DNA of 64,000 nt, from assembly GCA_000092065.1 (NCBI GenBank), contig CP000597.1. The stretch is one strand, 5' to 3'. Position 1 is the stretch's first letter. The number at the start of each line of letters is the position of its first letter. The notes beneath the pieces are model-generated. The model saw only the letters and a list, made by a program, of their open reading frames with translations. It was not told the origin of the DNA and made no database searches. The translations under genes were made by a program, and so were the position numbers. This DNA is from Ostreococcus lucimarinus. Taxonomy: Eukaryota. This document shows positions 17,910 through 61,749 of the stretch, one piece after another.

Positions 17910-17964
17910 AGGTAACATATAGAGAGGGTGGGTATATAGAGAGAGTTATAGAGAGTGTGTATGT

Positions 17965-17988
17965 TTTGCGACTCGCGCGAGTCGCAAA
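17965..17988. terminator. 24-bp perfect palindrome tttgcgactcgcgcgagtcgcaaa in convergent 3' spacer (cyclin / TauE)
   Basis: A self-complementary GC hairpin flanked by T/A runs in the AT-rich 350-bp spacer between two convergent genes. It is a candidate 3'-end or termination element for either transcript. Confidence 0.4.
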
Positions 17989-18260
17989 CCCGTAAAATAT
18001 AGCAGCGACGCGGTGCGTAACCGACGTCGTCATTGATATGAAACGATATTAGGGCGCGATATGTATCTTGGATATTGAAAACCAGCGATGGATTTCACGC
18101 GCAAATTAGAACCGTGAGTAATGTTAATGACAACGACTTCTTATTGAAGATTTAAACAACGCACGCGCGCCGCCGACGCGTCTGATAATCAATGAAAGGA
18201 TTTGCAAAGGAATCTGGCGGCATGGGCAATAATATGAAAACAACGGGAGCGTGAAGCGAT

Positions 18261-22671: not shown

Positions 22672-25600
22672 ATGCGGAAAAATTACCTGCTGAAGACGAA
22701 GGGCGTGCTGCGGTGCTGCACGCTGTGCGAGATCTTGGTGCCGGTGATTTTCTTGGGGCTCATGTGCCTGCCGAAGGCGTTGGTGCCGGATTCGAGGACG
22801 AACGATGAGCTGTCGAGGCCGTACGCGCTCGCGGGGGGGATCGAGAGCGTGAACCAGAGGACGCCGAGGGGGTTTCGGTTCGTGGTGGCGCCGGCGAGCG
22901 CGGAGACGCTGGAGCTCGGACGGCGAGCGTACGTGCACGCGATGTGCTTGAGCGAGCGGTCGATCGCGAAGGATAGGAGCTATGCGAACGATTTTGAGGA
23001 CGGGAAAAAGAATTTGTTGAATTTGATGGATGATCAGGTGCAGGCGTCGTCGAACGTCGCGACGGGGGTCAAATCGGCGTTCGCCGCGCTGTCGTACGAC
23101 GTCACGGCGATGCCCGCGGCGTGTTCGGATGCGTGCCTGCAGGACTCGTCGTGCGTGACGAGTACGTGGGACGCTATTTTAGACGAAGTCGTCGTGACCA
23201 AGGCGGATGAAGCCGCGGCGATGGCGTACGTCGCCAGTCGTCCCGGGGAAGTTTTCGCGTACGCGCGTTTTGATTCGGGAGGTAACGTCGCGAGCACGCG
23301 CGCGTTCGCGTACACGCTGCGCTTGAATTCGACGAACGTTGCGAACGAGGACAAGGCGGTGGCGGCGTTCATGGAGGACGACTTTACCGGGAGATGGGAC
23401 AGCGCGTACAACACAGATGATTGGGCAAAGTACAAGTCGTTTGCGTATGCGCAAAACGCGTTCGACGCGGCGATCATCGACATGAAGGACGGAGGCAGTG
23501 CGTATAGCGTGACGTTAGACACATCTCTCAAGCCATTTCCTTGGTTGGGGTTCGACTACAACGTCGGTGGCGTCATCGCCGCAGCCTTTTACGGCTTCGT
23601 CGGCTCGCTCGCGTTTCAAACCAACGTCGTCCTCGTCATGAAATCCATCGTCGTTGAGAAGGAATTGCGATTGCGAGAAGGGATGAAGATGATGGGTATG
23701 TCAAACACGATGTTCTGGTGGTCTTGGTTCTTCACGCACTGGCTTTCGGCGATGATTTCCGTCGTCTTGATCACGTTGGTCGGGATTTACCCGTTTTCGT
23801 ACACGAATCAATTCATTCAATTCATCTTTTACACGTTTTGGGTGGCGTCTTTAACGCTTTGGAACTTTTGGATCTCGACATTCTTTTCCAAATCGATCAC
23901 CGCCACCATAGTCGGCTGTTTCGCATACGTCCTCACCATGGTTCCTTCCATCGCGGTCCGCATCACGCAGCCCGAGGGCAGCGGCGCTTGGATCTTAGCG
24001 TGCATATTTCCATCCGGGGCGATGAACATGTGGGGCGCGGCGCTGGCTATTCTGGAGGTGAATAAGAAGGGTATCACGATGGAGACATTCAACGAAGACG
24101 TAACGCTCAAGGGGAACGTCACGTGCGCTGGTATCTTAGGCATGGTGATTTTCGATTGCTTATTTTACGCGTTTCTCACCTTTTACTTCGACGCCGTGTG
24201 GAAAACCGAATACGGCACGCGCCAGCCTCCTTGGTTTCTATTCACGCGTAAGTACTGGTGCGGTGACGCGTCGAAGGTCATCGATGATGAAACGCTTGGA
24301 ATGCACGAGCAAGAGTCTGGGGACGCCGTCGAGCCGCTCACGAAGCAACAGATGAAGTCAGCCAGCGTCGTCGTTCGCGGTTTGACGAAGAAGTTTGGCG
24401 ACGAAGTCACTGCGGTGGATAATTTGAGTATGACCTTTGTTCCTGGCCAAGTGAGTGGATTACTTGGTCACAATGGTGCTGGTAAAACGACGACGATTAG
24501 TGTTCTCACGGGTATGATTGAACGGACCTCTGGTCGAGCGACTATTGACGGGTACGACACCAAAACCCAGATGCGAGAAATTCGCGCCGGTCTCGGTATC
24601 TGCCCTCAATTCGACGTCCTTTGGCCGACACTCACGGTGCGCGAACATTTACAATTATACGCCGCATTTGCGGGTATGCAAAAAGAGGATGTAGAACGAG
24701 AACTCAAGCAAGTCGTGGAAGAGGTTGCGCTGACGGAGAAGATTGACGCGAACTCGAAGGATCTATCGGGTGGGATGAAGCGTAAGCTCTCGCTCGCTAT
24801 TGCGTTTATCGGCAGTCCGTCCGTAGTGTTTCTCGACGAACCAACGTCTGGGATGGACCCTTACTCGCGACGATTCACGTGGGACGTCATTCGCAAACGA
24901 GCCGCCAACTGCACAGTCTTGCTCACGACGCACTTTTTGGACGAGGCTGATTTGCTGTGCGATCGAGTCGCCATCATGAGCGCTGGTCATCTTGCATGCA
25001 TCGGTTCGCCACTATTCCTCAAGTCTAAATTCGGCACTGGTTATCTGCTCACGTTTGCGCGTCATAGTCGCGCGTCATCGACGCAAATCGCGTCGATGAC
25101 GCAGCACAACTCGAACGCCATGCTGCGAGTGATTCAACACTTCGTACCCAAAGCCGTTGTTCACAGCGACGTCGGCGCCGAGCTATCGTTTTCTTTACCA
25201 TTCGAGTCTACCGGCGACTTTTCTGCGTTATTCAAGGCTCTCGATGAGCAGATCGGGAATTTAGGGTACGCAAGTTACGGCATCTCGTGCACCACGCTCG
25301 AGGAGGTATTTCTATCTCTCGCACATGGGGTGAAGGCGGCGTCCACGGCGCAATCGAAAGGCAAGGTTGTGGACTTAGACGCACCCGTGGAAGAAGCCGA
25401 CGAATGTGAAGACCTCGATGCAAAATTGGTCGCTGGCAACCGCAAGGACATTCGCCAAACCTACGCGAAGGGTGGTGCCTTACTCAGAATCCAACTCAAA
25501 CGCTTGCTCTGGAAGCGTTGGCTCAATTGGCGTCGCAGCATGCGGTCGATATTCATGCAACTTCTCGTACCTTGTTTGCTCGTCGTGCTCGCGCTTTATT

Positions 25601-28113
25601 TGACCACGTTGAGTTTTGAACCTGGGAGCACGATTTCGGCGAAAGAAATCAGTCGAAAGCTACTCAATAACAAGAAGACCCTCGTGACGTACTCCCCTTC
25701 GGCGACTGAGGCGGTCGCCGTCACGACGAACTTGATGACAGACACTTACGCGTTACGCTCTCAGTATCAACCCGAGATTTCGTGTATGTGCAACTGCTTA
25801 GCGAAAGATCAAACGATCACGATGTCTGCCATGACGTGTTGCGCGTATAACAGAACCATTGAGTCAACGTGTCGAGTAGCGGCATTGGCACGTCTTGCGG
25901 GCGGGACGTATTGCGTCAAGTCTCCAAAAGGCTACGATGTACAAAGAGACATCGTTTCTATGGGGCTATCGTGCTCGTCCATGATAGATGACAGTATCGA
26001 TAGTTACTTACTAGACGTCCAAGAGCCATCGGTGCCTTGTGACATGCAACCGACGGGATCGCCGTGCGACGTCTTGTACGTTGACGAGTACGACGGCACG
26101 CGCTATAGTCACACGCTGTACGGACATCAAACAGCCTTACACGGTATGCCGACCGTCATCAACAACGTGAATAGTGCTATTTTGCGCAAGCGCACGTCCG
26201 ATTCTAGTGCGAGCATCACGACTACGATTCACTGGTATCCGAGCGCGGTGAATACACTGAAGGAAGGAGACATCGAAGAGCCGGACAACTCTGGAACTAC
26301 GTTCATCGTTTCCATGTTCGTCGTCATGGGGCTCGCTGTTCTCAGTGCTGGGATTTCAATCTTTCCAGTGTACGAACGATGCAATAACTCCAAACACTTA
26401 CAGCTCGTGAGTGGAATCGATAAACGAATTTATTGGCTGGCGCACTACGTCGCAGACGCCATACAGCTCGTTATTCCGTTCGCCGTCATCGTCGTCATTT
26501 TTGCCGGTTTCAATGCGTCTTACTTCCAAGGTCAACTCGGGGCGATCACTGTTTTGTTGGGTTTTTTCATGTTGACCTCTATTCCACACGCGCATTATCA
26601 AGGATTTTGGTACACTAGCGAATACTACACCTTTGTTGGGCAAATCGGAACAAACACCACCGTTGGCGTGATCACCACCATCGCCGGTATCGTCACCGAT
26701 GCCCTGAAAGACTTGAATAAAGAGACGTTGTTGGTGAGCAAAATCTTCAATTACACGTTTCCGCTCATCATTCCGCACTTTAGTTTCGGGAAAGGTCTAT
26801 ACGACATCGCACAAAATGGTTTGGACAAGACGCGGAAAATTTTCCGCGAGGATTGCATGTGCCTCGTCCCCGTCGTACCAAAGGGTTCTTTCAACGTCAT
26901 CGCCGACGATTTGGGCTATTTGATCGGAACATTTTTCATGTGGAGCGCTTTGTTGTTTTACAAAGAGTATAAAGAGATTTTCGCAAGTTGGATACTGATG
27001 AAACGTGGAAACTCGCAAGAGGTATCGCCGAGCGTCGACGAAGATGAAGACGTGCGAGCCGAGCGCGAACGCGTGCTCTCAGGAGACATCGACGGTGATG
27101 GCGTCATCATGGACCGCTTATCCAAGACGTACAAAGGCTTGTCAGCGAGTTCTACAAAGCTCGCCGTTCGAAATCTCAGCGTGGGTCTACATCGCGATCA
27201 ATGCTTTGGTTTGCTCGGCATCAACGGCGCGGGAAAGACGACGACATTCAAGATGCTCACGGGCGAGTTCCCACCATCTGCGGGTGACGCGATCATTCAA
27301 GATCGAGACGGTGCGTCTCACAGTGTGCGTACTGATCTTAACGACGCGCGACGATTGATGGGATATTGTCCTCAGTTCAACGGCTTGCAACCAAACTTTA
27401 CCGCACGCGAGCACATTGAATTCTACGCCGCCATTCGCGGAATGCCGACGGAGATGATTCCGCGCGTGACGGAAGATCTGCTGCAGCGTATGGGTTTGAC
27501 TTTGTATGCCGATAGACAAGCTGGAACATACAGTGGAGGCAACAAGCGTAAGCTTTCTGTCGCGTTGTCGCTCGTCGGCGAACCAGAAGTCGTCTTCTTG
27601 GATGAACCATCAACTGGTATGGATCCCGAAGCGAGACGGTTCATGTGGGACGTGATCTCGTCCATGATGGTTGGACGCACGATTGTTCTCACATCGCACT
27701 CTATGGAGGAGTGTGAGGCACTCTGTAATCGCATCGGTATCATGGTGAGTGGCGAGTTCAAGTGTCTTGGCTCCTTGCAGCACTTGAAGTCGCGCTTTAG
27801 TGAAGGATACTCCATCGATCTGCGCTTTTCCGACGGAAAAGGAAACGCCGTTATGGAAGCGCTACGAGCCAAACACGGAGACATTGGAGCGGAGATAGTA
27901 GAAACACACGCCACAGAAATTAAACTTCGCGTGATGAATCCCGAAATGAAACTTTGGCGTATTTTTGACGCCGTCGAAGCTTTGAAGCAGTCGGACGACG
28001 ACGGCGCAAGAATTGACGACTACTCCGTGTCGCAGACGACTTTAGAGCAGGTCTTCATCCGATTTGCAAAGGAGCAAACCGAGGAGATACACGCGGCACC
28101 GGGATTACAGTAG
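22672..28113 (+). CDS. Full-size ABC transporter, ABCA subfamily (two TMD-NBD halves)
   Basis: 1813-aa intronless ORF with ATG at 22672. N-terminal ABCA-type TM1 and large extracytoplasmic loop; two NBDs with Walker A (GHNGAGKTT / GINGAGKTT), signature LSGGMKRKLS / YSGGNKRKLS and Walker B (VVFLDEP). Confidence 0.9.
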   Translation: MRKNYLLKTKGVLRCCTLCEILVPVIFLGLMCLPKALVPDSRTNDELSRPYALAGGIESVNQRTPRGFRFVVAPASAETLELGRRAYVHAMCLSERSIAKDRSYANDFEDGKKNLLNLMDDQVQASSNVATGVKSAFAALSYDVTAMPAACSDACLQDSSCVTSTWDAILDEVVVTKADEAAAMAYVASRPGEVFAYARFDSGGNVASTRAFAYTLRLNSTNVANEDKAVAAFMEDDFTGRWDSAYNTDDWAKYKSFAYAQNAFDAAIIDMKDGGSAYSVTLDTSLKPFPWLGFDYNVGGVIAAAFYGFVGSLAFQTNVVLVMKSIVVEKELRLREGMKMMGMSNTMFWWSWFFTHWLSAMISVVLITLVGIYPFSYTNQFIQFIFYTFWVASLTLWNFWISTFFSKSITATIVGCFAYVLTMVPSIAVRITQPEGSGAWILACIFPSGAMNMWGAALAILEVNKKGITMETFNEDVTLKGNVTCAGILGMVIFDCLFYAFLTFYFDAVWKTEYGTRQPPWFLFTRKYWCGDASKVIDDETLGMHEQESGDAVEPLTKQQMKSASVVVRGLTKKFGDEVTAVDNLSMTFVPGQVSGLLGHNGAGKTTTISVLTGMIERTSGRATIDGYDTKTQMREIRAGLGICPQFDVLWPTLTVREHLQLYAAFAGMQKEDVERELKQVVEEVALTEKIDANSKDLSGGMKRKLSLAIAFIGSPSVVFLDEPTSGMDPYSRRFTWDVIRKRAANCTVLLTTHFLDEADLLCDRVAIMSAGHLACIGSPLFLKSKFGTGYLLTFARHSRASSTQIASMTQHNSNAMLRVIQHFVPKAVVHSDVGAELSFSLPFESTGDFSALFKALDEQIGNLGYASYGISCTTLEEVFLSLAHGVKAASTAQSKGKVVDLDAPVEEADECEDLDAKLVAGNRKDIRQTYAKGGALLRIQLKRLLWKRWLNWRRSMRSIFMQLLVPCLLVVLALYLTTLSFEPGSTISAKEISRKLLNNKKTLVTYSPSATEAVAVTTNLMTDTYALRSQYQPEISCMCNCLAKDQTITMSAMTCCAYNRTIESTCRVAALARLAGGTYCVKSPKGYDVQRDIVSMGLSCSSMIDDSIDSYLLDVQEPSVPCDMQPTGSPCDVLYVDEYDGTRYSHTLYGHQTALHGMPTVINNVNSAILRKRTSDSSASITTTIHWYPSAVNTLKEGDIEEPDNSGTTFIVSMFVVMGLAVLSAGISIFPVYERCNNSKHLQLVSGIDKRIYWLAHYVADAIQLVIPFAVIVVIFAGFNASYFQGQLGAITVLLGFFMLTSIPHAHYQGFWYTSEYYTFVGQIGTNTTVGVITTIAGIVTDALKDLNKETLLVSKIFNYTFPLIIPHFSFGKGLYDIAQNGLDKTRKIFREDCMCLVPVVPKGSFNVIADDLGYLIGTFFMWSALLFYKEYKEIFASWILMKRGNSQEVSPSVDEDEDVRAERERVLSGDIDGDGVIMDRLSKTYKGLSASSTKLAVRNLSVGLHRDQCFGLLGINGAGKTTTFKMLTGEFPPSAGDAIIQDRDGASHSVRTDLNDARRLMGYCPQFNGLQPNFTAREHIEFYAAIRGMPTEMIPRVTEDLLQRMGLTLYADRQAGTYSGGNKRKLSVALSLVGEPEVVFLDEPSTGMDPEARRFMWDVISSMMVGRTIVLTSHSMEECEALCNRIGIMVSGEFKCLGSLQHLKSRFSEGYSIDLRFSDGKGNAVMEALRAKHGDIGAEIVETHATEIKLRVMNPEMKLWRIFDAVEALKQSDDDGARIDDYSVSQTTLEQVFIRFAKEQTEEIHAAPGLQ

Positions 28114-34133: not shown

Positions 34134-36422
34134 ATGCGCGTCGCCCGCGAGCGCGTCCTCGCGCCCCGCGCGCCGCTTCGCGCCTCGCGCGCGCGCGCGC
34201 GCCGTCTCCACCGCGCGCGCCCGCGCGCGCTCGACCGCGTCGACGGCGCGAGCGATCCGGGCAAGCGACCGGAGCACGAGCGCGAAGAATTTCGCTCCAC
34301 GGATTTGACGCCTCGAAGCGCGCGCTTCGCGGTCGATCGCGACGGGGCGAGCGCGTTTTTGGATCGCGGGAGCGCGGCGCGTCGCGACGGGGCGAACGAC
34401 GGCGCGAGCGACGACGGCGACGGCGCGCGCGAGGGCGAGCGAGAGCAGACGGAGCAGAGATTTATGGCGGACGCCAGCGATCCGTTCGCGGCGGCGTCGG
34501 ACGCGGCGACGGCGCGGTTGAGGGCGCGACTGACGCGGAGCGGCGCGGGGGCGACGACGCGAGGCGACGACGGAGCGACGACGGAGCGACGACGAAGCGA
34601 CGCGGACGTGGTGTCGAGGTTTGATGATTTGGAGATTGAGGCGAGTGCGTTGGAGGCGCTGGAGGCGCAGCTTGAGGATGCGATTGAGAGTGAAGATTAC
34701 GCGAGCGCGGCGTCGTTGAAGCGGGCGGCGGATGCGCTGCGAGCGAGCGACGATACGGGACAAATGTGCGAGGCGTACGCGAAGGCGATCGCTGAGGATA
34801 GGTTTGAAGACGCCGTACGGTTGAGAGACGCTGGTGTGGGGCTGTGTGGATGGTGGGCGGGGATGGAGGAGGTGCCGCAGGGTGAGGACGACGGGGAGCG
34901 CGCGGAGGGAGACGAAGCGCGCGAGCATCCGACGGGGGTGATTATGAGGATATCTCGCGAGCACGGACGACTCGTGGGATCGACGTATTCGTCTCGAGAC
35001 TTGGCTGATATCGTGGAACTAAATAAAGCGTACCCGAAAGGGTACGATTACGACGCTGGACAGCCGGTGATGGAGATTATGTTGCAGGAGGACGCCGACG
35101 CCGCGGGTGGGTTTCGTCGCGACGTCATGCGGTTAAACTACATCCCGGTTTCGATTCCTCTCGTCGATGACGACGAGGAGGAGGAAACGACGTCGTCGGA
35201 AGCTTTGATTGAAGGCGGTGTCGGATTCATCGCGACGCAGAGCGAGTCTACGTCGTCGACCGCAGTCGTGGACGACGCGACGGCGGCGGCGGATGTCGAA
35301 GACGCGCTTCGCGGCGCCGCTCGCGAAGACATCGAAAGCGTCAAGGAAGAAATCAAAGCCAAGCTTCTCGGGCTCGATCCTTCGAGTGGAAAGACGCGCG
35401 ATGACGCGCTTGAAGAGATTGGTGCGATGTTGGATAAGTTTAACGACGCCATCAACGCAGAGGATGACGACGACGACGACGACGACGAGACGCTGTACGA
35501 CATCAAGCGTACCACGGCGGCGTTGCATCAAGAGGGTTTGCACGCGTTCGTGCTCACGAGCGACAACGAAATGTTATCTCTCGATGACGACGACGACGAC
35601 GACGGCGACGACCGCAGACCGTTCTCTCACGCGCTGGATAAGGAGATCGAAGGCTTCTTGGCCACAAAGTGGGAGAGCATGGTGCCCAACGCTGACGCGA
35701 CGGCGTCGCGAGGCTTGGGCGCTGGATCGCACACGGCTCTCGTGAACGCGGTGAAAGAGGCCGCGCAAGAGATGTTTGCGAGTCAAGACGAAAATGACGA
35801 AGATTTGGACGAGGAGTACTTTGGAGAAGGCGACGATGACGACGAAGACGTCGACGAGGTGAGCGCCGAGGAATTACTCGCGCTCATCGGTCAAGACGCC
35901 GTCTTGCACCGCCCGCTTCCGGGTCGAGTGCGATTTCAGCGCATCGATCCGCGCCTGGCGTCGGGTTCGCGAAACGATGTCTTCGACGGGCTTTATATCG
36001 GTGCTTTTGGCCCGCACGGTCCGGAAGTTTTGCGCATGGTTCGCGGGCGCTGGGGCGACGACGTCGGCGAGTCAAACGAGTGCGTCACCGCCGTCAAGCT
36101 CACGGGCGACGAAAACGTCCCGTGCGGCGCCGCGAGTTTCCGCGCCAAAGTGAGCAAGGAAAACTTAATCACCGAAGGCAGCTCTTATCCCGATGAGCTC
36201 GGCGTGTTGGCGAGATACAAGGGCGAAGGCCGCGTCGCCAAGCCCGGGTTCGCCGACTCGCACTGGGTCGAGGGTGAACTCTTGGTCTTGAACGGCAAGG
36301 GTGGATCTCTCACCGGCGGTGCCGAGCTCGGTTTCGTCTGGGCCGTCCCGGGTGAGCGAAGATTACTCATCTTATTCTCTTCGCTCGTCCTTCCGGACGT
36401 CGACGTCGCCAAGACGCGCTAA
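34134..36422 (+). CDS. EXECUTER1/2-like protein (UVR motif + DUF3506), plastid singlet-oxygen signalling family
   Basis: UVR-type motif (ESEDYASAASLKRAADALR) and a C-terminal block that closely matches Arabidopsis EX1 (GLYIGAFGPHGPEV...AVKLTGDENVPCGAASFRAKV...LGVLARYKGEGRVAKPGFADSHWVEGELLVLNG...LGFVWAVPGE). The start is uncertain: I take the ATG at 34134; the tool ORF overlaps the upstream HAD gene. It contains poly-Asp tracts. Confidence 0.7.
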   Translation: MRVARERVLAPRAPLRASRARARRLHRARPRALDRVDGASDPGKRPEHEREEFRSTDLTPRSARFAVDRDGASAFLDRGSAARRDGANDGASDDGDGAREGEREQTEQRFMADASDPFAAASDAATARLRARLTRSGAGATTRGDDGATTERRRSDADVVSRFDDLEIEASALEALEAQLEDAIESEDYASAASLKRAADALRASDDTGQMCEAYAKAIAEDRFEDAVRLRDAGVGLCGWWAGMEEVPQGEDDGERAEGDEAREHPTGVIMRISREHGRLVGSTYSSRDLADIVELNKAYPKGYDYDAGQPVMEIMLQEDADAAGGFRRDVMRLNYIPVSIPLVDDDEEEETTSSEALIEGGVGFIATQSESTSSTAVVDDATAAADVEDALRGAAREDIESVKEEIKAKLLGLDPSSGKTRDDALEEIGAMLDKFNDAINAEDDDDDDDDETLYDIKRTTAALHQEGLHAFVLTSDNEMLSLDDDDDDDGDDRRPFSHALDKEIEGFLATKWESMVPNADATASRGLGAGSHTALVNAVKEAAQEMFASQDENDEDLDEEYFGEGDDDDEDVDEVSAEELLALIGQDAVLHRPLPGRVRFQRIDPRLASGSRNDVFDGLYIGAFGPHGPEVLRMVRGRWGDDVGESNECVTAVKLTGDENVPCGAASFRAKVSKENLITEGSSYPDELGVLARYKGEGRVAKPGFADSHWVEGELLVLNGKGGSLTGGAELGFVWAVPGERRLLILFSSLVLPDVDVAKTR

Positions 36423-36652
36423 ATATTCTGCAATCAAAACGGCGACGCCTTCGTCGCTGACCACTAACGAGTAACCATTCTTTTCTCAGCACCAAGTCAC
36501 GCGCGCGCGAGCATATTTTTTGTATTGCATTTTTGCATTAGAAGAGTGTTGTAACAACATAAACTCTGTTTCTTAAAAACTTTTGCTCGTTTACTTACAA
36601 CCCCGCGCGCGAGCGCCTTCGCGGCGACGACGCCATTATCACTAAAATCTCT

Positions 36653-37140
36653 CTACTTCGCGTTCGGGTTGGCGGCCAAATAACTCACCGCCTCCGGAAT
36701 CGACTGTATCTTATCCGCCTCCGCGTCCGGGATCTCCACCGCGAATTCCTCCTCCATCGCCATGACCACCTCCACGGTGTCCAACGAATCCAGCCCGAGA
36801 TCGCCCGCGAACGCCGACGTCGCCGTCACCTTGCTCGCGTCCACCTTTGCGAAGTTCTTCACCACGCTCACCACGCGCGCCGTGACTTCGTCCTCGTTCA
36901 AAAATCCCGCGCCGTACGCCCGGCACGCGCTCTGCGTCGTCGCGCGCCCCGCGTTTCCATCGTCAGTCTCGACGCGTAGGGTTGATCGATCGTCCATCGT
37001 TCGCGCGCGCGTCTTCGCCGTCGCGCGCGTCGCTCGGCGCGCGCGTCGCCGTCGGCGCGCACCGCGATCGTTTGAGGCGCGCGTCGCCCGCCTCGAAGCG
37101 CGTCGCGCCACGCGCGGTTCGTGAGCTGTCGTCGAAACAT
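36653..37140 (-). CDS. Mitochondrial acyl carrier protein (ACP/NDUFAB1-like), two exons: complement(join(36653..36931,37063..37140))
   Basis: Exon 2 has the ACP core (FAGDLGLDSLDTVEVVMAMEEEFAVEIPD). The tool ORF reads through an Arg-rich antisense-like stretch. A separate-frame exon 1 (ATG 37140) encodes a textbook presequence, MFRRQLTNRAWRDALRGGRRAPQTIA. Donor CG|GTGCGCG at 37062, branch GAGACTGACGATG, acceptor ACGCAG at 36932, joining to SACRAYGAGFLNEDE... Confidence 0.75.
36932..37062 (-). other. Spliceosomal intron in ACP gene (131 nt, phase 0)
   Basis: GTGCGCG donor; ACTGACGA 30 nt upstream of the CAG acceptor. The two exons are in different frames, as expected for a 131-nt intron. Confidence 0.6.
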
Positions 37141-44185: not shown

Positions 44186-46048
44186 ATGGGACGCTCGACG
44201 ACGCGCGGGACGTCGCGCGACGGCGCGTTCGACGCGCGGTTCTGGATCGAGCGCGACGAGGACGCGCTCGCGTCGACGTCCGTCGTCGCCGGCGCGGACG
44301 GCGCGGCGATCGAGATCGAACGACGGACGGTGACCGCGCGCGGCGTCGACGCGAGCGCGACGCCGTACGCGCTCGCGCGAGGCGCGCGAGGCGGAGGCGC
44401 GAGGGCGCTGTTGGTGTACACGCACGGCACGGGATCGAGCAAGGAGGAAGTGCTGGATCGGGCGCGGGCGTACGCGCGCGAGGGGTGGGATTGCGCGGTG
44501 TTCGACGCGGTGGGACACGGCGAGCGAGCGCGCGGCGAGGACGACGCGTACGGACGCGTCTTGGCGGAGGCGTACGATCGAATTGAGCGCTCGGGAGAGA
44601 CGCGCGAGCGGTACGGGAACTCGCCGTACGTCGTGGACGGCGCGATAGATTGCCTGCGGGTGGCGCGCGCGGCGTTGGGGAACGCGCCGGGGACGACGCG
44701 AGCGTGCTTCGCGGGCGAGAGCTTGGGCGGGATGTACGCGGCGTGCGCCGCCGCGGGATGGTCGCTAGATTGGGGGTTTAAGCTCGTCGCGTGCGCGCCG
44801 ATGATTGGATTTTCGAGTTTTTCGTACGGCGTCGAACACGAGCGATGGTTCGCGCGCGCGATCTCGCTGCCGAAGCGCCTGTGGTCGCGCGTCTCCGACG
44901 GCGCGAGAGAGACGCCGACGCTCGCCGACGTCAAGGATTTTTATTCGCGCGTGTGTCCGGATATTTGCGGCGGTTCTCGCGACGGCGCTCGAGTGTTGGC
45001 GCGCATTCGAGCGAAACGGGTGCACTTTTGCGCGGTGAACGGGTCGGACGACGCGAGAAATCCTATGGAGGGCGTGATGGAGGCGTTCGCCGAGCAACCG
45101 TCGCGTGCGAAACAGTACGGCGCTCGAGCGCAGTGCACGATCGTCGCGCAAAAGGGCGTGGGACACGAGATCACGGACGCCATGCGCGACGTCGTGCGAA
45201 CGTTTCTCACCAACGTCGCCGCGAATTTCGTGGAACCAGAGGCGATGACGTTCGACGATAAAATTTGGGACGTCGTCTCGAACGAAGTCGCGGAGAACGT
45301 TCGCGAGCCCCTTCGCGCGAAGCTTGAATCGTGGGCAAACGGTGGCATAGATCTCGCGTCGTACCTCGACGACGCCGATCGCGAATTTTTGTCCGACCCA
45401 GCGTCGAGCGTCGCGCTCGCGTCCGAAGGCGTCGACGCCGTCGTGGCTTTGATAGAAAAAGCGCGCGAGCGCGCCGAAGTAAAGTACGTCTCGCCATTCG
45501 AGATTGCGAAGCGCGAGAAAGCCGAAAGGCTCGTTCGCGAACGCGAAGAAGCCGAGGAAGCAGAACGACGACGTCGAGTGGCTGAGCGAGAGGCAGAGCG
45601 AGAGGCGGAGCGCCGCCGCGTCGAAGAAGCCGAAGCGCGCCGACTCGCCGCCGAAGCCGAGCGCGTCGAACGCGCTCGTCTCCAGGCGGAAGAGGCGGAA
45701 AGACGGCGCGTCGAAGCAGAAAACGCCGAGCGCGCGCGTTTGGAGCGCGAAGAGCTCGCCCGTGAACGCGAGTTGGAGGCGGAAAAGAAGCGAGCCGAAG
45801 AGGCAGCCGAGCGCGCTCGAAAAGAGGCGGAAGAAACGCGGCGAGTCGAAGGTTTGGCTCGCGTTCGCGCATTGCTGACGAAGAAGAATTCTGTCAAGGA
45901 AGAGATGAAGGCGAGCGCGAAGGAACGCGTGAGTGATAAGTTAAAGGTGAGGCAGGCGTCGATAAGCGAGAGGTTGATGCGGTTGAAAAGCAGTCACTCG
46001 CGTCGTCTGCAAGAGGAGGAAGATAGCGAGAGGAATGGATTGATTTAA
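44186..46048 (+). CDS. Alpha/beta-hydrolase fold esterase/lipase-like protein with long C-terminal Glu/Arg/Ala-rich coiled-coil
   Basis: Nucleophile elbow GESLGG within a typical alpha/beta-hydrolase context (HGTGSSKEE ... CFAGESLGGMYA ... GVGHEI). The C-terminal 170 aa are ER-rich heptad-like repeats (EAERRRVEEAEARRLAAEAERVERARL...). ATG at 44186. Confidence 0.55.
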   Translation: MGRSTTRGTSRDGAFDARFWIERDEDALASTSVVAGADGAAIEIERRTVTARGVDASATPYALARGARGGGARALLVYTHGTGSSKEEVLDRARAYAREGWDCAVFDAVGHGERARGEDDAYGRVLAEAYDRIERSGETRERYGNSPYVVDGAIDCLRVARAALGNAPGTTRACFAGESLGGMYAACAAAGWSLDWGFKLVACAPMIGFSSFSYGVEHERWFARAISLPKRLWSRVSDGARETPTLADVKDFYSRVCPDICGGSRDGARVLARIRAKRVHFCAVNGSDDARNPMEGVMEAFAEQPSRAKQYGARAQCTIVAQKGVGHEITDAMRDVVRTFLTNVAANFVEPEAMTFDDKIWDVVSNEVAENVREPLRAKLESWANGGIDLASYLDDADREFLSDPASSVALASEGVDAVVALIEKARERAEVKYVSPFEIAKREKAERLVREREEAEEAERRRRVAEREAEREAERRRVEEAEARRLAAEAERVERARLQAEEAERRRVEAENAERARLEREELARERELEAEKKRAEEAAERARKEAEETRRVEGLARVRALLTKKNSVKEEMKASAKERVSDKLKVRQASISERLMRLKSSHSRRLQEEEDSERNGLI

Positions 46049-46113
46049 TTTTCGTACGTAGTCGTGTTGCAAAGCTAAAGTTCCAAATTGTATATCTATC
46101 AGATTTATGAGAT

Positions 46114-47760
46114 TTAGACGACACCCATCTTGGAGAGAAGCTTTTTTGATTCCGCGGCGTAGTTGACCGGGTTACACTTGACCGCCGTCATGCGACGCTT
46201 GCTTTCGCCTTGGTATTCCTCGGTGACGACCTTGACGAGGAAGGACCAGTGCTGGCACGTCATCTTCTTCACCGCACGTTCGTACGCCGCGAAGTCGTTT
46301 TCCTTCAACTCGTGCATTTCGTTCGCCGTCATGCCGAACATCTTCGTCGCTTCTTCGTTGAACGCGTTCAACCACGCGCCTTCGGAGCTATCCTGCGCCT
46401 TGAATCGCATAATATAACGGCGTTCGCAAGTGTCGTAGGTTTGCCCGTTCGCTTCGCAGTACCATTTACCATCGCTTTCGATCACCTTCTTGTTGTTTCC
46501 TTCTTCGGGTGTGGCGGTGTAGTACATGGTTTGATCTGGCTTGCACATGACGGTGTGCGCGCACACCCACGCAAACGTCGGCTTGTCGGTCACCGGGGCG
46601 ATTTCCTCCGGCTGGAGCTCGGCGAGGTTACTCGCCATAATTTCGCTCTTTTGACCTTGCTGCGCGCTGGTGAGACCTTCGCCCGCGGCCGTGGTTTCGG
46701 CGCTGGAGCCGCCCTCAGACCACCACTTTTTGATTTCGACGGCGCGCGGCACGTCCTCCGGATCGATGACGATGTCAGAGCGGGAGACGGTGCCGATGGA
46801 GACGCCTTCGTAATCACCGACGCGAACAGAACGAATAGCCACCACCGGGTTGGTCATCGACGCCAACTGTTCGCCGACTTCGACGGCGAGCGCGTTCCAA
46901 AGAGTCAACCTGACGGTTTTCGCCGAGTCGTCGACCAAGACGACTTCGCGCTTGTTCAACTCGGTGTTGTCGCTCTTGCGGCGAATGGACGACAGTTCGC
47001 TGACTTCCTTGACCACGGCGACGACGTCGACGTTGCCACGCGCACCAATCTTGCTCGCGAGCTTGTTGATGGGCACGAAGGCGTACGCGCGTTGCATCTT
47101 TTGCGCGCTCGACTGATCGATGTCGTTGCAGACGTCGATTTCGCACTTGCCGTCGAGGTTCATCTCGTAATCGTTACCCGAAGTCGAGTATCGCTTATCC
47201 GCCGGTTTGAGAGAACCCTTGGAGACGTAGTAAACCTTGCCGACTTCCAAAACTGAGTCGTACTTTTCAATCGCTTCGCGCCAGAGCGTCGCGCCGATGG
47301 CGGTACCCTCCTCGTCGACAAAGTCGACCGAGCAAACCTTACCCGGACCACGCGCGCTCTTGTACTCGCGCACGTTCCCCTTGTTCGTCAACTTCACCTT
47401 GACCGTCCACGGCGTGCGGTACGGGTTAAGCGCCGCGAGCGGCACCGCCGCGCGTTCCGCGCTCGCCGGCGTCTTCGGCTCCGTCTTCGCCGCCTTCGCC
47501 GCGGGCGTCGTCACCTTCTCCTTCACATCCGCGTCGACGACTTCGAACCCGTTGATCACCGCGAACGGTTTACGCTCAACGCCATCCGTTTCGAACGCCA
47601 CGTCCGTGAGCTTCAACACCGCGTTCTCCTTCACCGCGCCGCTCGACAGCTTCTCCCCGCACGTCGCCGCGAACTTCGCCGCGATGGTGTTCTCCCCGTC
47701 GTTCAGCGTCGCACTGCACCGCCCGAAATCCACGTCATCACCGTCAGTCAAACGAACCAT
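46114..47760 (-). CDS. RPA1: Replication protein A large subunit (RPA70/RPA1)
   Basis: N-terminal OB (MVRLTDG...), DBD-A/B OB folds, and the C-terminal zinc ribbon (NKKVIESDGKWYCEANGQTYDTCERRYIMRFKAQD...WLNAFNE). First ATG at 47760; the tool ORF starts at a TTG at 47838. Confidence 0.85.
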   Translation of the reverse strand: MVRLTDGDDVDFGRCSATLNDGENTIAAKFAATCGEKLSSGAVKENAVLKLTDVAFETDGVERKPFAVINGFEVVDADVKEKVTTPAAKAAKTEPKTPASAERAAVPLAALNPYRTPWTVKVKLTNKGNVREYKSARGPGKVCSVDFVDEEGTAIGATLWREAIEKYDSVLEVGKVYYVSKGSLKPADKRYSTSGNDYEMNLDGKCEIDVCNDIDQSSAQKMQRAYAFVPINKLASKIGARGNVDVVAVVKEVSELSSIRRKSDNTELNKREVVLVDDSAKTVRLTLWNALAVEVGEQLASMTNPVVAIRSVRVGDYEGVSIGTVSRSDIVIDPEDVPRAVEIKKWWSEGGSSAETTAAGEGLTSAQQGQKSEIMASNLAELQPEEIAPVTDKPTFAWVCAHTVMCKPDQTMYYTATPEEGNNKKVIESDGKWYCEANGQTYDTCERRYIMRFKAQDSSEGAWLNAFNEEATKMFGMTANEMHELKENDFAAYERAVKKMTCQHWSFLVKVVTEEYQGESKRRMTAVKCNPVNYAAESKKLLSKMGVV

Positions 47761-59268: not shown

Positions 59269-59790
59269 TCACGCCGCCGTCGCTTTGGCGCGCACGCGCT
59301 CGCGCCAGCCCACGAGCGCCGGACCGGGAATTTTCAACGCCTCCACGGTGTACGTCTTCTTCGATTTCGTCGACCGCTCGGAGTTTTCGCCGTCATCATT
59401 CGTTCGAACGCCGTCGTCGTCGTTTTCGTCGTCGTCGAACGAAAGACCGCGCTCGCACAACGTCGCCGCGTCCTCGTCGCGCGCGAACGTCACGAACGCG
59501 AAATCCTCTCCCTCCGGCACGTAACACCGCGTCACCTTCCCCCCGCGCACCGCTCTTTCGCACGCCTCGAGCACGTCCGACGCGTTTCTCTTACTCTCCG
59601 GCAAATCGTACGCCACGCACGGGTTCTTCAGCCGCGCGAACCGCTCCTGCCCGTCCTCCTCCATCGTCCACTCCGACTGCCACCCGTACTTCATCTGTCG
59701 ATACTCCGGCGTGTTCGGCTCGTCGATCGCGTACCCGGATCCCGCGATCTCGAAGAACGGGCCGAACGATCCCGCATCGCGTTCGCTCAT
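59269..59790 (-). CDS. Hypothetical protein with possible RRM-like fold
   Basis: 173-aa ORF with ATG at 59790. VTRCYVPEGEDFAFVTFARDEDAATLCE resembles an RNP-type beta-alpha-beta segment. Acidic C-terminus. Family not recognised. Confidence 0.35.
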   Translation of the reverse strand: MSERDAGSFGPFFEIAGSGYAIDEPNTPEYRQMKYGWQSEWTMEEDGQERFARLKNPCVAYDLPESKRNASDVLEACERAVRGGKVTRCYVPEGEDFAFVTFARDEDAATLCERGLSFDDDENDDDGVRTNDDGENSERSTKSKKTYTVEALKIPGPALVGWRERVRAKATAA

Positions 59791-59895
59791 GTCGTCGCGT
59801 CGTTCTCCTCCGTCGCGCGATTCTGACGTCGCATCGATTCGATTGTTCGCTCGAAACGCTCGCGTAACGCCCGCGCGCCACCCCGGTCGAAACCT

Positions 59896-59925
59896 AACTA
59901 TAAACTATAAACTATAAACTATAAA
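59896..59925. repeat. (CTATAAA)n microsatellite, about 4.5 units, in AT-rich island
   Basis: aactataaactataaactataaactataaact immediately upstream of the 79-bp direct repeats. Confidence 0.9.
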
Positions 59926-60132
59926 CTCGTCGAGTTTTCTACGTATTCACCGTGATTTAGATCTATTAGTGCCGAAATCGCGAAACCCGTTTTGTCCAGC
60001 CTGCACACTTACGCACAAACTTAGGGACTAAGAGCATCGCAATAACTTAAGTTCTCGTCGAGTTTTCTACGTATTCACCGTGATTTAGATCTATTAGTGC
60101 CGAAATCGCGAAACCCGTTTTGTCCAGCCTGC
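59926..60132. repeat. Two perfect 79-bp direct repeats (59926..60004 and 60054..60132) separated by a 49-bp AT-rich spacer (equivalent to 1.6 copies of a 128-bp unit)
   Basis: ctcgtcgagttttctacgtattcaccgtgatttagatctattagtgccgaaatcgcgaaacccgttttgtccagcctgc occurs twice, identically. It lies in the divergent 5' region between the minus-strand hypothetical gene (ATG 59790) and the plus-strand PRC-barrel gene (ATG 60202). Confidence 0.9.
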
Positions 60133-60201
60133 GCCCGGGCGCGCCGGCGACGCCGCGCGCATTGGACGCTGCGCGACGCATTACCGCGCGCGTCGCGCGT
60201 C

Positions 60202-61749
60202 ATGGCGTCTCCGACGCCGCACGCGCGCGCGCTCTGCCGCAGCGTAAACGTCCCGATCGCGCTCGACGACCGACGCGGTGCGCGCGCGATCAGACGACGC
60301 GCGACGCGCGCGAATGCGTCGACGAATGGGACGCCCGCGAGCGGGGACGCGCGCGCGAACGTCGACGACGACGACGAGAGACGACCGGGAAGCGTCGGGC
60401 GAGGGAACGACGGTGACGTGATGTTCGTGAACGGCGACGGCGCGACGCGGCGCGCGATCGGGGGCCGACGCGCGATGGAGGGACGCGCGGCGAATGGCGA
60501 CGAGGGGGAGAGGTTAAGAGACGGCGGCGCGCGCGGCGACGACGACGCGAGACGGGATTCGCGCGCGAGAGACGCGTCGTCGTCGTCGCCGGGGATGGCG
60601 AGAGGAAGTGGTGCGCGCGCGAGGTCGTCGAGCGGGGGCGCGAGCGCGATCAGAGGCGCGAACGCGGCGCGAGCGCAAACGGCGGAAATCTTGCTCACGC
60701 GAGGGTTGATTCTGAATAAGCTCGTCGTGACGCGCACGAGCGGGTCGCGATTGGGCGTGGCGACGGATTTGTGGGTGGACACCGATACGTGGGAGGTCGT
60801 GGCGTTAGATATTCGACAAAACGCGTTCGTGGGGACGGTAGACCACGTGCTGCTGGAGTCGCTGAGGCAAGTCGGGGACGTGATTTTGGTACACGACGAG
60901 CGCGCGGTGGAGCGGCGATGGAGCTCGTACGGATACAGCGCGGTGGTGGGGAAGGACGTCGTCACCGAGAGTGGGCAGTTTATCGGTCGAGTGCGGGATT
61001 TCGAATTCGATCCCGAGGACGGCGCCATCGCGAGGTTGATCGTCGACGCGTGGGGCGTGCCCACGGTGCCCGAGGGCGTGGTGTCGACGTACGCCGTGGA
61101 CGTCGTTGAGATTTTAGACTGCGGAACCGAACGCATCATCGTCGCCGAAGACGCCGAAAGTCGAGTCGAACAACTCAGCATGAGCGTTTTACAGCGCTTG
61201 GCGTTGACCGTGCCGCCGTGGGAGGAGGAAGAGATGATGTTCGGAAGCGACGCCTACTACGACGACGTCTACTACGACGACTACGGCCGCGCCGTGCCGT
61301 CGCGATCGCGCCGTCGCGCCGACGTAGACGAGTACGAAGCCTTCTTCCGACGTCGCGGCGGCGCCGCGCGCGGCGTCGAGCAGCGCCAATCGTCCGGAAG
61401 CCCCGTTCGCGAGGGCATCCCGCTGATGCGTCCGACGCAAGCGTACGAACGTCGCGACGTCGACGGCGGCTACGGCGACCGCCCCGGTTTCTCCGATTGG
61501 GTCGTCCGCGACGATCGCCGTCAATCGCGCGAGTACGAAACCGTCGACGCGTACTGGGATCCTCCCGCGAGACGCGAGCGCGCCGCCGCGCGTCGTCCGC
61601 CCGCCGACGCCCGCGACGTCCGCGACGTCCGCGCGTCGCCGCCGCCGCGCGACGCTCGCCCCCCGCCGCGTTCGCGCCGCGCGCCGCCGCCGCGTTCGCG
61701 CCGCGCGCCGCCCTCGGGCGCGTTCGACGCGTCCGAGGACATGCTCTGA
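60202..61749 (+). CDS. PRC-barrel domain protein (two PRC-barrel-like repeats) with low-complexity Arg/Pro/Asp-rich tail
   Basis: AEILLTRGLILNKLVVTRTSGSRLGVATDLWVDTDTWEVVALDI and AVVGKDVVTESGQFIGRVRDFEFDPEDGAIARLIVD resemble PRC-barrel units. ATG at 60202 (MASPTPHARALCRS...). The tool ORF starts within the upstream repeat. Confidence 0.5.
   Translation: MASPTPHARALCRSVNVPIALDDRRGARAIRRRATRANASTNGTPASGDARANVDDDDERRPGSVGRGNDGDVMFVNGDGATRRAIGGRRAMEGRAANGDEGERLRDGGARGDDDARRDSRARDASSSSPGMARGSGARARSSSGGASAIRGANAARAQTAEILLTRGLILNKLVVTRTSGSRLGVATDLWVDTDTWEVVALDIRQNAFVGTVDHVLLESLRQVGDVILVHDERAVERRWSSYGYSAVVGKDVVTESGQFIGRVRDFEFDPEDGAIARLIVDAWGVPTVPEGVVSTYAVDVVEILDCGTERIIVAEDAESRVEQLSMSVLQRLALTVPPWEEEEMMFGSDAYYDDVYYDDYGRAVPSRSRRRADVDEYEAFFRRRGGAARGVEQRQSSGSPVREGIPLMRPTQAYERRDVDGGYGDRPGFSDWVVRDDRRQSREYETVDAYWDPPARRERAAARRPPADARDVRDVRASPPPRDARPPPRSRRAPPPRSRRAPPSGAFDASEDML

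Follow-up and report, generated by a model that had tools for sequence, protein, structure and literature searches.

The stretch of DNA analysed here (the window) comprises 64,000 nucleotides of contig CP000597.1 of Ostreococcus lucimarinus, and between positions 59,896 and 60,132 it carries a short array in which a heptamer microsatellite is followed by two copies of a 79-nt element that we refer to as X. The array lies in a divergent promoter of roughly 400 bp, between a gene encoding a 173-aa protein and a gene encoding a PRC-barrel domain protein. A comparison with metagenome contigs showed that it is one two-copy allele of a copy-number-variable array, formed by an element that is itself dispersed at low copy number over several loci. 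The window locus, referred to below as locus A, contains the following features (nt, nucleotides; aa, amino acids; ORF, open reading frame; TRF, Tandem Repeats Finder).

59269-59790, minus strand: gene for a 173-aa protein, taken from the ORF list; its ATG at 59790 faces the array; no Pfam family
59791-59895, no strand assigned: unique upstream promoter DNA (U_A); conserved among the alleles and also in the sister lineage
59896-59927, plus strand: heptamer microsatellite (AACTATA)x4.6, found by TRF with 100% matches, directly 5' of the first X
59926-60004, plus strand: X copy A, 79 nt, found by repeat search
59930-59947: 5' conserved block of X copy A, TCGAGTTTTCTACGTATT
59988-60004: near-invariant 3' block of X copy A, CGTTTTGTCCAGCCTGC
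60005-60053, plus strand: spacer S1 in its 49-nt version, between X copies A and B
60054-60132, plus strand: X copy B, 79 nt, 100% identical to copy A
60133-60201, plus strand: GC-rich unique DNA of 69 nt, from the last X to the PRC-barrel ATG; the right-hand junction GCCCGGGCGCGCC is invariant
60202-61749, plus strand: PRC-barrel domain gene, 515 aa (Pfam PF05239, E 4.5e-12; also called as a gene on independent contigs)

The composition of the array agrees with what an earlier note, made from the letters of this DNA alone, had described: the heptamer microsatellite and the two identical 79-bp repeats, spaced 49 nt apart, were recovered by TRF and by a repeat search that places the two copies 128 nt apart from start to start. 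The microsatellite corresponds to (CTATAAA)n in another register and yields four tandem TATAAA motifs. Within the window the X unit (up to three mismatches) occurs at these two sites only, and it had no match in any of 100 dinucleotide-preserving shuffles of the window. Moreover, no further X was retrieved from the 64 kb by nhmmer with a profile of eleven diverse copies, or by a search for both conserved blocks in which three mismatches were allowed. The array block had also been called the only strongly AT-rich block among the genes, apart from the 3' spacers. It indeed represents the lowest-GC 200-nt segment of the 64 kb (0.39 versus 0.63 overall), but five further 200-nt segments have a GC content below 0.45. 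The low-GC segments at 17961-18260, 23641-23900, 26561-26980, 36401-36660 and 45921-46220 do not contain X. A longer stretch of 5 kb between 24000 and 29000 is low in GC as well (0.48-0.53 per kb versus 0.63 overall).

The bidirectional nature of the promoter, likewise proposed in the earlier note, is borne out by the opposite orientation of its two genes, the 173-aa ORF (minus strand) and the PRC-barrel gene (plus strand). The supposed overlap of copy B with the start of the PRC-barrel ORF is an artefact of mechanical ORF listing, in which the frame begins at GTG 60097; gene callers put the start at ATG 60202 on most of the independent contigs. The DNA that borders the array hardly varies. 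On the left, U_A is identical or nearly so in L001-L010 and can be clearly aligned to L021 and L022, which derive from a sister lineage (the labels 'window clade' and 'sister lineage' are based on protein identity alone). On the right, the first 25 nt past the last X are the same in nine of the nine metagenome contigs that span the array, and the remainder of the 69-nt stretch shows one single-nucleotide polymorphism, in L004 and L006. All ten Logan contigs that were inspected for the exact PRC-barrel protein (L011-L020) start 99 nt before its ATG and thus 30 nt inside X, because a k=31 assembly breaks at the repeat.

The array itself differs strongly between alleles. A look-up of the 173-aa protein, of which the assembly collection has exact records in 1091 blocks (with 24 contigs read), provided the same locus from ten assemblies. 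The outer left and right junctions are identical between the alleles and the array alone differs, in such a way that the DNA between the two conserved start codons measures from 284 to 905 nt. The structures, as derived from metagenome assemblies, are listed below.

One X copy: L004, L005 and L006; structure X
Two X copies: the window; structure X-S1-X
Two X copies: L007; structure X-S2-X
Three X copies: L001; structure X-S3-X-S2-X
Three X copies: L002 and L003; structure X-S1-X-S2-X
Six X copies and a remnant: L008; X, then a truncated S1 with an X 3' fragment, then five S2-separated X
At least two to three X copies: L009, L010, L037, L045 and L047; the contig end falls inside the array

Strain polymorphism is thereby evident in the metagenome contigs, with 1, 2, 3 or 6 copies at one and the same locus. 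The copies are arranged head to tail, with a period of 128 nt in the window and of 114-136 nt in the other alleles, and are separated by just three types of spacer: S1 (49 nt in the window, 57 nt in the metagenome alleles), S2 (35 nt, with the two haplotypes S2a and S2c) and S3 (34 nt and related to S2). The presence of the heptamer microsatellite depends on the allele: it is carried by the window, L002, L004, L006 and L009, and is replaced by CTCAACTCTAAT or CTCAAACTCTATT in L001, L003, L005, L007, L008, L010, L037 and L045. In addition, both window copies of X share a private C (TATTCACC) at a position where every metagenome allele has TATTTACC instead. A private base that is common to both copies shows a recent duplication or conversion within the array, and thereby supports the explanation that had been given earlier for their identity.

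The S2 spacers hold telomere-like heptamers, TAAACCC and TTAACCC (e.g. in L002 and L025), and the leader upstream of X (e.g. window 59880-59925) contains GAAACCT and CAAACCT heptamers. The unit of the window microsatellite, AAACTAT, has a 7-nt period, as have the telomere-like heptamers of the leaders and spacers.

Moreover, X is not confined to locus A. A scan of the metagenome collection with the pattern TCGAGTTTTCTACG-N45-62-TTTTGTCCAGCCTGC yielded 23 contigs. In a BLAST comparison with the window four of these represented locus A or its sister orthologue (L037, L045 and L047, together with L039 from the sister lineage), whereas the remaining ones aligned to the window within X only. Two other loci of the window clade are characterized by the following contigs.

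Locus B (L025, L027, L033, L038 and L041): from the start of a heme oxygenase gene (PF01126) to the 3' end of a gene for a 1541-aa protein; one to three copies, spacer S2a
Locus C (L035, L040, L042 and L043): from an RRM/RBM39-like gene to another 173-aa gene; two copies

At locus C the spacer is S1 in L040 and L042 and S2c in L035, and X ends 13 nt before the ATG. The spacers are common property of the different loci: S1 is found at loci A and C, S2a at loci A and B, and the S2c haplotype at both locus A (L008) and locus C (L035). In fact, S1 looks like a recombination junction, in which the 10 nt that begin the downstream flank of locus B are followed by 9 nt and then by the 38 nt that end the upstream flank of locus C. 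More diverged copies of X are present at the loci D-I and in L048, with different flanks at each; the loci D-I come from one Joint Genome Institute (JGI) sample series and could stem either from the sister lineage or from a different Ostreococcus. The family is low-copy, considering that no more X was found in the 64 kb by profile or block search, and it occupies at least three promoter-proximal loci in the window clade; these counts derive from metagenome contigs and the 64-kb window, and the true copy number would require complete genomes. The earlier note had held that a unique, non-transcribed unit without promoter activity would be of interest only as a simple local duplication. The unit proved to be multi-locus and copy-number polymorphic, and therefore is more than that.

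At locus B the 28-44 nt directly 5' of the first X are unrelated to each other in different alleles (L025 at ~11.7-12.1 kb, L038 at ~6.3-6.6 kb, L033 at ~0.7-0.85 kb and L041 at ~3.05-3.16 kb). One of these alleles is TATA-rich 5' of X (GATTTATATATCGCTTTATATAT), in parallel to the (CTATAAA)4 allele at the window locus.

A comparison with the sister lineage (91-93% identity in orthologous proteins and ~92% in coding DNA) provides an indication of the age of the loci. Arrays are present at the orthologous loci A' (L021, L022 and L039) and B' (L032 and L036), where the middle section of X is different and the 3' parts of the spacers are partly homologous to S1 and S2. Locus C' has a single X that is GC-richer and strongly diverged, and that lies 13 nt from the ATG as at locus C. 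Loci A, B and C are thus occupied in both the window clade and the sister lineage. For the 173-aa protein orthologues were found at 93%, 78% and ~48% identity, and in the species with 78% and ~45-48% identical orthologues no clear X was seen at loci A and C. This distribution indicates that the loci A, B and C are old and positionally stable. Nevertheless, within the window clade the X copies at A, B and C are near-identical, which implies that sequence has been exchanged between unlinked loci. Judged by this pattern, the X copies evolve in concert, both within and between loci.

In the species of 78% identity the orthologous intergenic region (L023, ~465-513) holds an X-like stretch that is reversed with respect to the flanking genes. 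The match was weak (nhmmer E 0.037 in a small database), and the stretch, which may be a degenerate inverted copy, is not relied on here.

The mean pairwise identity of ten diverged X copies, taken from different loci and lineages, revealed a block-wise conservation. The last 19 columns at the 3' end (CGTTTTGTCCAGCCYGC) are 95% identical, and the last 17 nt about 95%. The 5' third, which contains TCGAGTTTTCTACGTATT with a TACGTA palindrome, is 73% identical and the middle 64%, versus 36-37% for the adjoining 22-25 nt to the left and right. X is sharply bounded at its 3' end but has a fuzzy boundary at its 5' end. A short, A/T-rich leader of ~20 nt (…AAACCTATT) is also common to the X copies. 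Moreover, the 5' and 3' blocks resemble each other as direct repeats (CGnGTTTTsTmC) that are located ~62 nt apart.

The position of X relative to genes follows a common theme. X ends 13-70 nt before the downstream ATG at C, C', F, E, H and A, and at each of the loci A-H at least one gene start adjoins X. At locus C, where in both lineages only 13 nt separate X from the ATG, transcription has to begin within X or further upstream. Some alleles of both A and B have TATA-rich sequence directly 5' of X, and these sequences have arisen independently. Most copies outside the window have a conserved ATG at position 40 of X, with the frame MS(S/T/A)K.A(I/V)AFCPAC (L031:416-516, L030, L044:5812-5904, L031:5802-5894, L050:1918-1986 and the last copy in L025). 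This ATG shares its frame with the ORF downstream at loci E and H, but not at F and C', and has been lost (ATT or ATA) in the main window-clade variant and in one sister-lineage variant. It might possibly open an upstream ORF (uORF). We also considered X as a coding exon or conserved peptide and rejected it, since the conservation is at the nucleotide level and shows no third-position excess, and since in the window clade the ATG has become ATT, a TGA stop is present and the window variant has a frameshifting indel.

Taken together, we lean towards the view that X is a recombination-prone, promoter-proximal module that forms a variable number tandem repeat (VNTR), that is subject to gene conversion between loci and that may have a regulatory role. 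The arrays would grow and shrink by unequal homologous recombination or slippage between the 79-nt X copies, and units would pass between loci by ectopic gene conversion; alternatively, a circle of X plus spacer might be excised and re-integrated into another X through X homology. The combination of unequal recombination or slippage with transfer between loci would lead to concerted evolution. X itself may act as a cis-regulatory or 5'-leader module close to the promoter, with TCGAGTTTTCTACG(T)ATT and above all CGTTTTGTCCAGCCYGC as putative protein-binding or initiation-proximal sites, in which case the copy number would alter promoter spacing and dosage for the flanking genes. As expected of a promoter module, X lies 5' in intergenic DNA near gene starts and its blocks are constrained compared to their surroundings. 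The duplicated promoter module that was put forward in the earlier note was in that sense part of the truth: the unit is promoter-proximal, but it has also been dispersed to other loci.

Several points weigh against this view of X. Any regulatory function of the element is purely something that we infer, and the conserved ends, the variable middle and the knife-sharp 3' boundary would equally suit the cis-acting termini of a mobile element. At locus B there is no gene start downstream of X in the orientation of X, so the relation to genes is not uniform. Furthermore, where intergenic spacers measure ~200 nt (a figure for the related genus Micromonas; PMC4815162), every insertion that is tolerated will seem to lie close to a promoter. 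Finally, metagenome assemblies may collapse or mis-join repeats. The single-copy alleles in the k=141 assemblies are not collapse artefacts, however, because the k-mers must span both junctions, and junction-spanning k-mers are likewise needed for the mixed-spacer alleles. In addition, four contigs for which the names alone suggest a different assembler (possibly long-read; L008 bears such a name) agree with the array structures.

The main rival explanation is that X constitutes a non-autonomous mobile element without terminal inverted repeats, of a Helitron-like, introner-like or other class, for which effects on promoters are incidental. The arrays would then result from insertion beside or into existing copies, and the conserved ends would be the cis sites of mobilisation. 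Such an element would account for the dispersal of X over differently flanked loci (A-C in the window clade, D-I and L048 elsewhere), for the conserved ends with variable middle and sharp 3' boundary, for the identical spacer-plus-X units at different loci, and for a truncated X that is fused to an unrelated orphan ORF in L046. The termini, however, carry no signature. No terminal inverted repeats are present in or around the unit, and a repeat search with seed 6 between 59850 and 60030 found 0 inverted pairs. A miniature inverted-repeat transposable element (MITE) was therefore rejected; a pairing of GTGCAssCTGGA with TCCAGCCTGCAC that was noticed on visual inspection of loci B and C does not hold in general. 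Target-site duplications would appear as duplicated bases at the junctions of loci A-I, where none are seen, although the 5' boundary is fuzzy and no empty site is available for comparison. The Helitron ends 5'-TC and 3'-CTRR are lacking as well: X terminates in CCTGC or CCCGC, with a variable base before (A or T) and after (G, A or T) the terminus, and a short CGCGATCGCG palindrome lies 15 nt from the X end in some copies only. Nor was an autonomous partner seen. The orphan ORF in L046 was rejected as such, for it has no Pfam domain and Ostreococcus orphan relatives only, and the full-length family has its own N-terminus. With respect to numbers, the window clade has about three loci, all of them positionally shared with the sister lineage, and the 64-kb window has one array only. 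Every allele seen at A, B and C has at least one X, where it should be considered that the contigs of B and C were retrieved via X and that an empty site could be visible only at A. The occupation of A, B and C in both lineages implies that mobility is low or proceeds through recombination. The low copy number, the positional orthology and the lack of terminal signatures thus argue against a mobile element, and we regard it as unlikely rather than implausible. Of the small mobile element that had been suggested in the earlier note, the dispersal to other loci remains, whereas terminal inverted repeats and detectable target-site duplications do not accompany it. A related and distinctly improbable scenario is that the X arrays serve for docking in a mobile promoter system that is driven by recombination and needs no transposase, or that X represents the first member of a new class of transposon without terminal inverted repeats, with a strictly conserved 17-nt 3' terminus. 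Spacer-plus-X units would in such a system move among a handful of dispersed X sites, as small circles or by gene conversion, and the promoter spacing and dosage of unlinked genes (heme oxygenase, PRC-barrel and others) would be re-wired in natural Ostreococcus populations.

The other explanations are still less probable. X could be a tandem gene for a small non-coding RNA, either similar to a small nucleolar RNA (snoRNA) or a short RNA polymerase III transcript that ends at the TTTT near the X 3' end, in line with the TATA-like motifs directly upstream in some alleles, the T4 run inside the conserved 3' block, and the conserved ends with a variable middle, which are superficially guide-RNA-like. 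Yet there was no match to an Rfam family at gathering or relaxed thresholds, nor a tRNA or tmRNA according to ARAGORN. Both strands of X and the plus strand of the unit plus spacer fold worse than shuffled sequences (z from +0.84 to +1.95), whereas the minus strand of the unit plus spacer folds marginally better (z -0.62; 49 of 200 shuffles fold as well). RNAalifold on nine diverse X copies returned three pairs at -1.4 kcal/mol, with 0 compensatory pairs and no covariation. C/D boxes (C RUGAUGA, D CUGA) and H/ACA features are missing from the conserved columns on either strand, as the earlier note had already observed for the window copies, and its tandemly duplicated small-RNA gene has become very improbable. 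A neutral, strain-private local duplication or an assembly artefact without wider significance would fit the adjacency and 100% identity of the two window copies. That the same architecture occurs in many independent assemblies with varying copy number, that X is found at other loci and in the sister lineage, and that its conservation is block-wise makes this barely credible; in fact, the copy-number alleles and the dispersed loci refute it. Lastly, the alternation of repeats and spacers, and the differences in spacer content between strains, bring to mind a CRISPR-like or cassette array that stores foreign spacers, for instance prasinovirus-derived ones. There are, however, only three types of spacer; the same ones recur at different loci, and in part they are homologous to the leader that precedes the first repeat. 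When IMG/VR was scanned for exact matches to the repeat and to four segments of spacer (two of S1, one each of S2 and S3), 0 were found, and the 17-mer 3' block alone gave three chance matches without X context. The repeat is 79 nt long and unstructured, and the array neighbours are ordinary housekeeping or plastid-type genes without effector or adaptation genes among them. We attach next to no credence to such an array.

Compared with known systems, the X arrays work like promoter minisatellites and VNTRs, as exemplified by the unstable tandem repeats in yeast promoters and the VNTRs in the promoters of human INS and MAOA. In both cases the members of a single population differ in the copy number of a head-to-tail array in a promoter, probably as a result of unequal recombination or slippage; the spacing of the divergent promoter changes accordingly. 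The X unit is, however, long (114-136 nt) and composite, as it combines a conserved 79-nt part with one of three unrelated spacers, and unit and spacers occur in concert at several unlinked loci, whereas classical minisatellites are locus-specific. In terms of what defines a VNTR, X has a head-to-tail unit and a polymorphic copy number (one to three at B, and C varies as well), but not a homogeneous unit restricted to a single locus. Transitions from MITE to satellite are found in bivalves, Drosophila and plants. The tandem arrays derived from MITEs resemble those of X in being formed by a short, non-coding, A/T-richer dispersed element near genes, with conserved ends and a variable interior. 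They differ in that X has no terminal inverted repeats or visible target-site duplications, is of very low copy number, has three positionally orthologous loci and showed no empty sites. Tandem enhancer or spacer-promoter modules, such as the 72-bp repeats of SV40 and the 60/81-bp repeats of the Xenopus rDNA spacers, are likewise modules of ~60-100 bp in regulatory regions that vary in number and are homogenised by recombination. For X, however, the regulatory activity is a putative one, and the copies reside on different contigs next to protein-coding genes that are single-copy rather than members of a repeated family. CRISPR and integron cassette arrays share with X the alternation of a conserved repeat with differing spacers and the differences in content from strain to strain, but X is a 79-nt unstructured repeat at a eukaryotic nuclear locus, with three leader-related spacers, no viral matches and no enzyme genes. 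The introner elements of Micromonas, the sister genus within the Mamiellales, are short repeated non-coding elements too (PMC4815162, PMC4540971). Both families are short repeats specific to Mamiellales, and the X 3' block TTTTGTCCAG resembles a polypyrimidine tract with an AG acceptor. Nevertheless, X is intergenic in all copies, has no conserved GT donor and numbers a handful versus hundreds to thousands. X thus lacks the defining features of MITEs, Helitrons, snoRNAs and CRISPR arrays. A search of the available literature with motif strings and with Ostreococcus repeats, MITEs and introners returned no description of the element. The family therefore appears to be undescribed, while being of a known general kind, i.e. 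a recombining, promoter-located repeat family.

Ostreococcus is a globally abundant picoalga with one of the most streamlined eukaryotic genomes. In this setting we find a promoter whose length ranges from ~280 to 900 nt between wild genotypes, owing to a repeat family that stays homogeneous even though its loci are unlinked. The X arrays are thus a clear case, taken from nature, of structural promoter polymorphism and concerted evolution in a streamlined genome. The number of copies and the order of the spacers make the array usable as a strain-typing marker in metagenomes. Should the conserved blocks be binding sites, the X family would define a small set of co-regulated genes and would supply a tunable natural promoter series, in an organism for which reporter assays exist.

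The genes around the array in the window are of an ordinary nature. The neighbours include the PRC-barrel, NmrA-like, methyltransferase and CbiQ-like genes, of housekeeping or plastid type, and the window proteins were found in exact form in hundreds of marine metagenome contigs. The NmrA-like protein falls in the same 90% cluster as XP_001422150.1 of O. lucimarinus CCE9901 and sequences of O. mediterraneus. By its proteins the window reads as nuclear DNA of an Ostreococcus close to O. lucimarinus. In the protein clusters of the PRC-barrel gene no transcript-derived members were found.

A few minor observations concern the other contigs. In L046 (1433-1888, minus strand) the truncated X extends as far as its internal ATG and continues in frame into the low-GC orphan ORF. 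The ORF belongs to a family (P0041-P0051) with related stretches in L048 (1-1110) and L049 (55-1060), and in L046 and L048, though not in L049, it is followed by the same ~110-nt 3' flank and a copy of X. P0052, annotated at NCBI as 'MAG: hypothetical protein, Euryarchaeota archaeon' (MAG, metagenome-assembled genome), is 91% identical to the Ostreococcus orphan family over the C-terminus, and the archaeal MAG probably contains a contaminating Ostreococcus contig. Short tandem repeats occur in other Ostreococcus promoters as well: a 23-nt unit is present twice in L052 (~380-430), a unit of ~45 nt with (GATC)n three times in L053 (~1890-2010), and a 20-nt unit five times in L031 (~5690-5800), directly 5' of X copy H.

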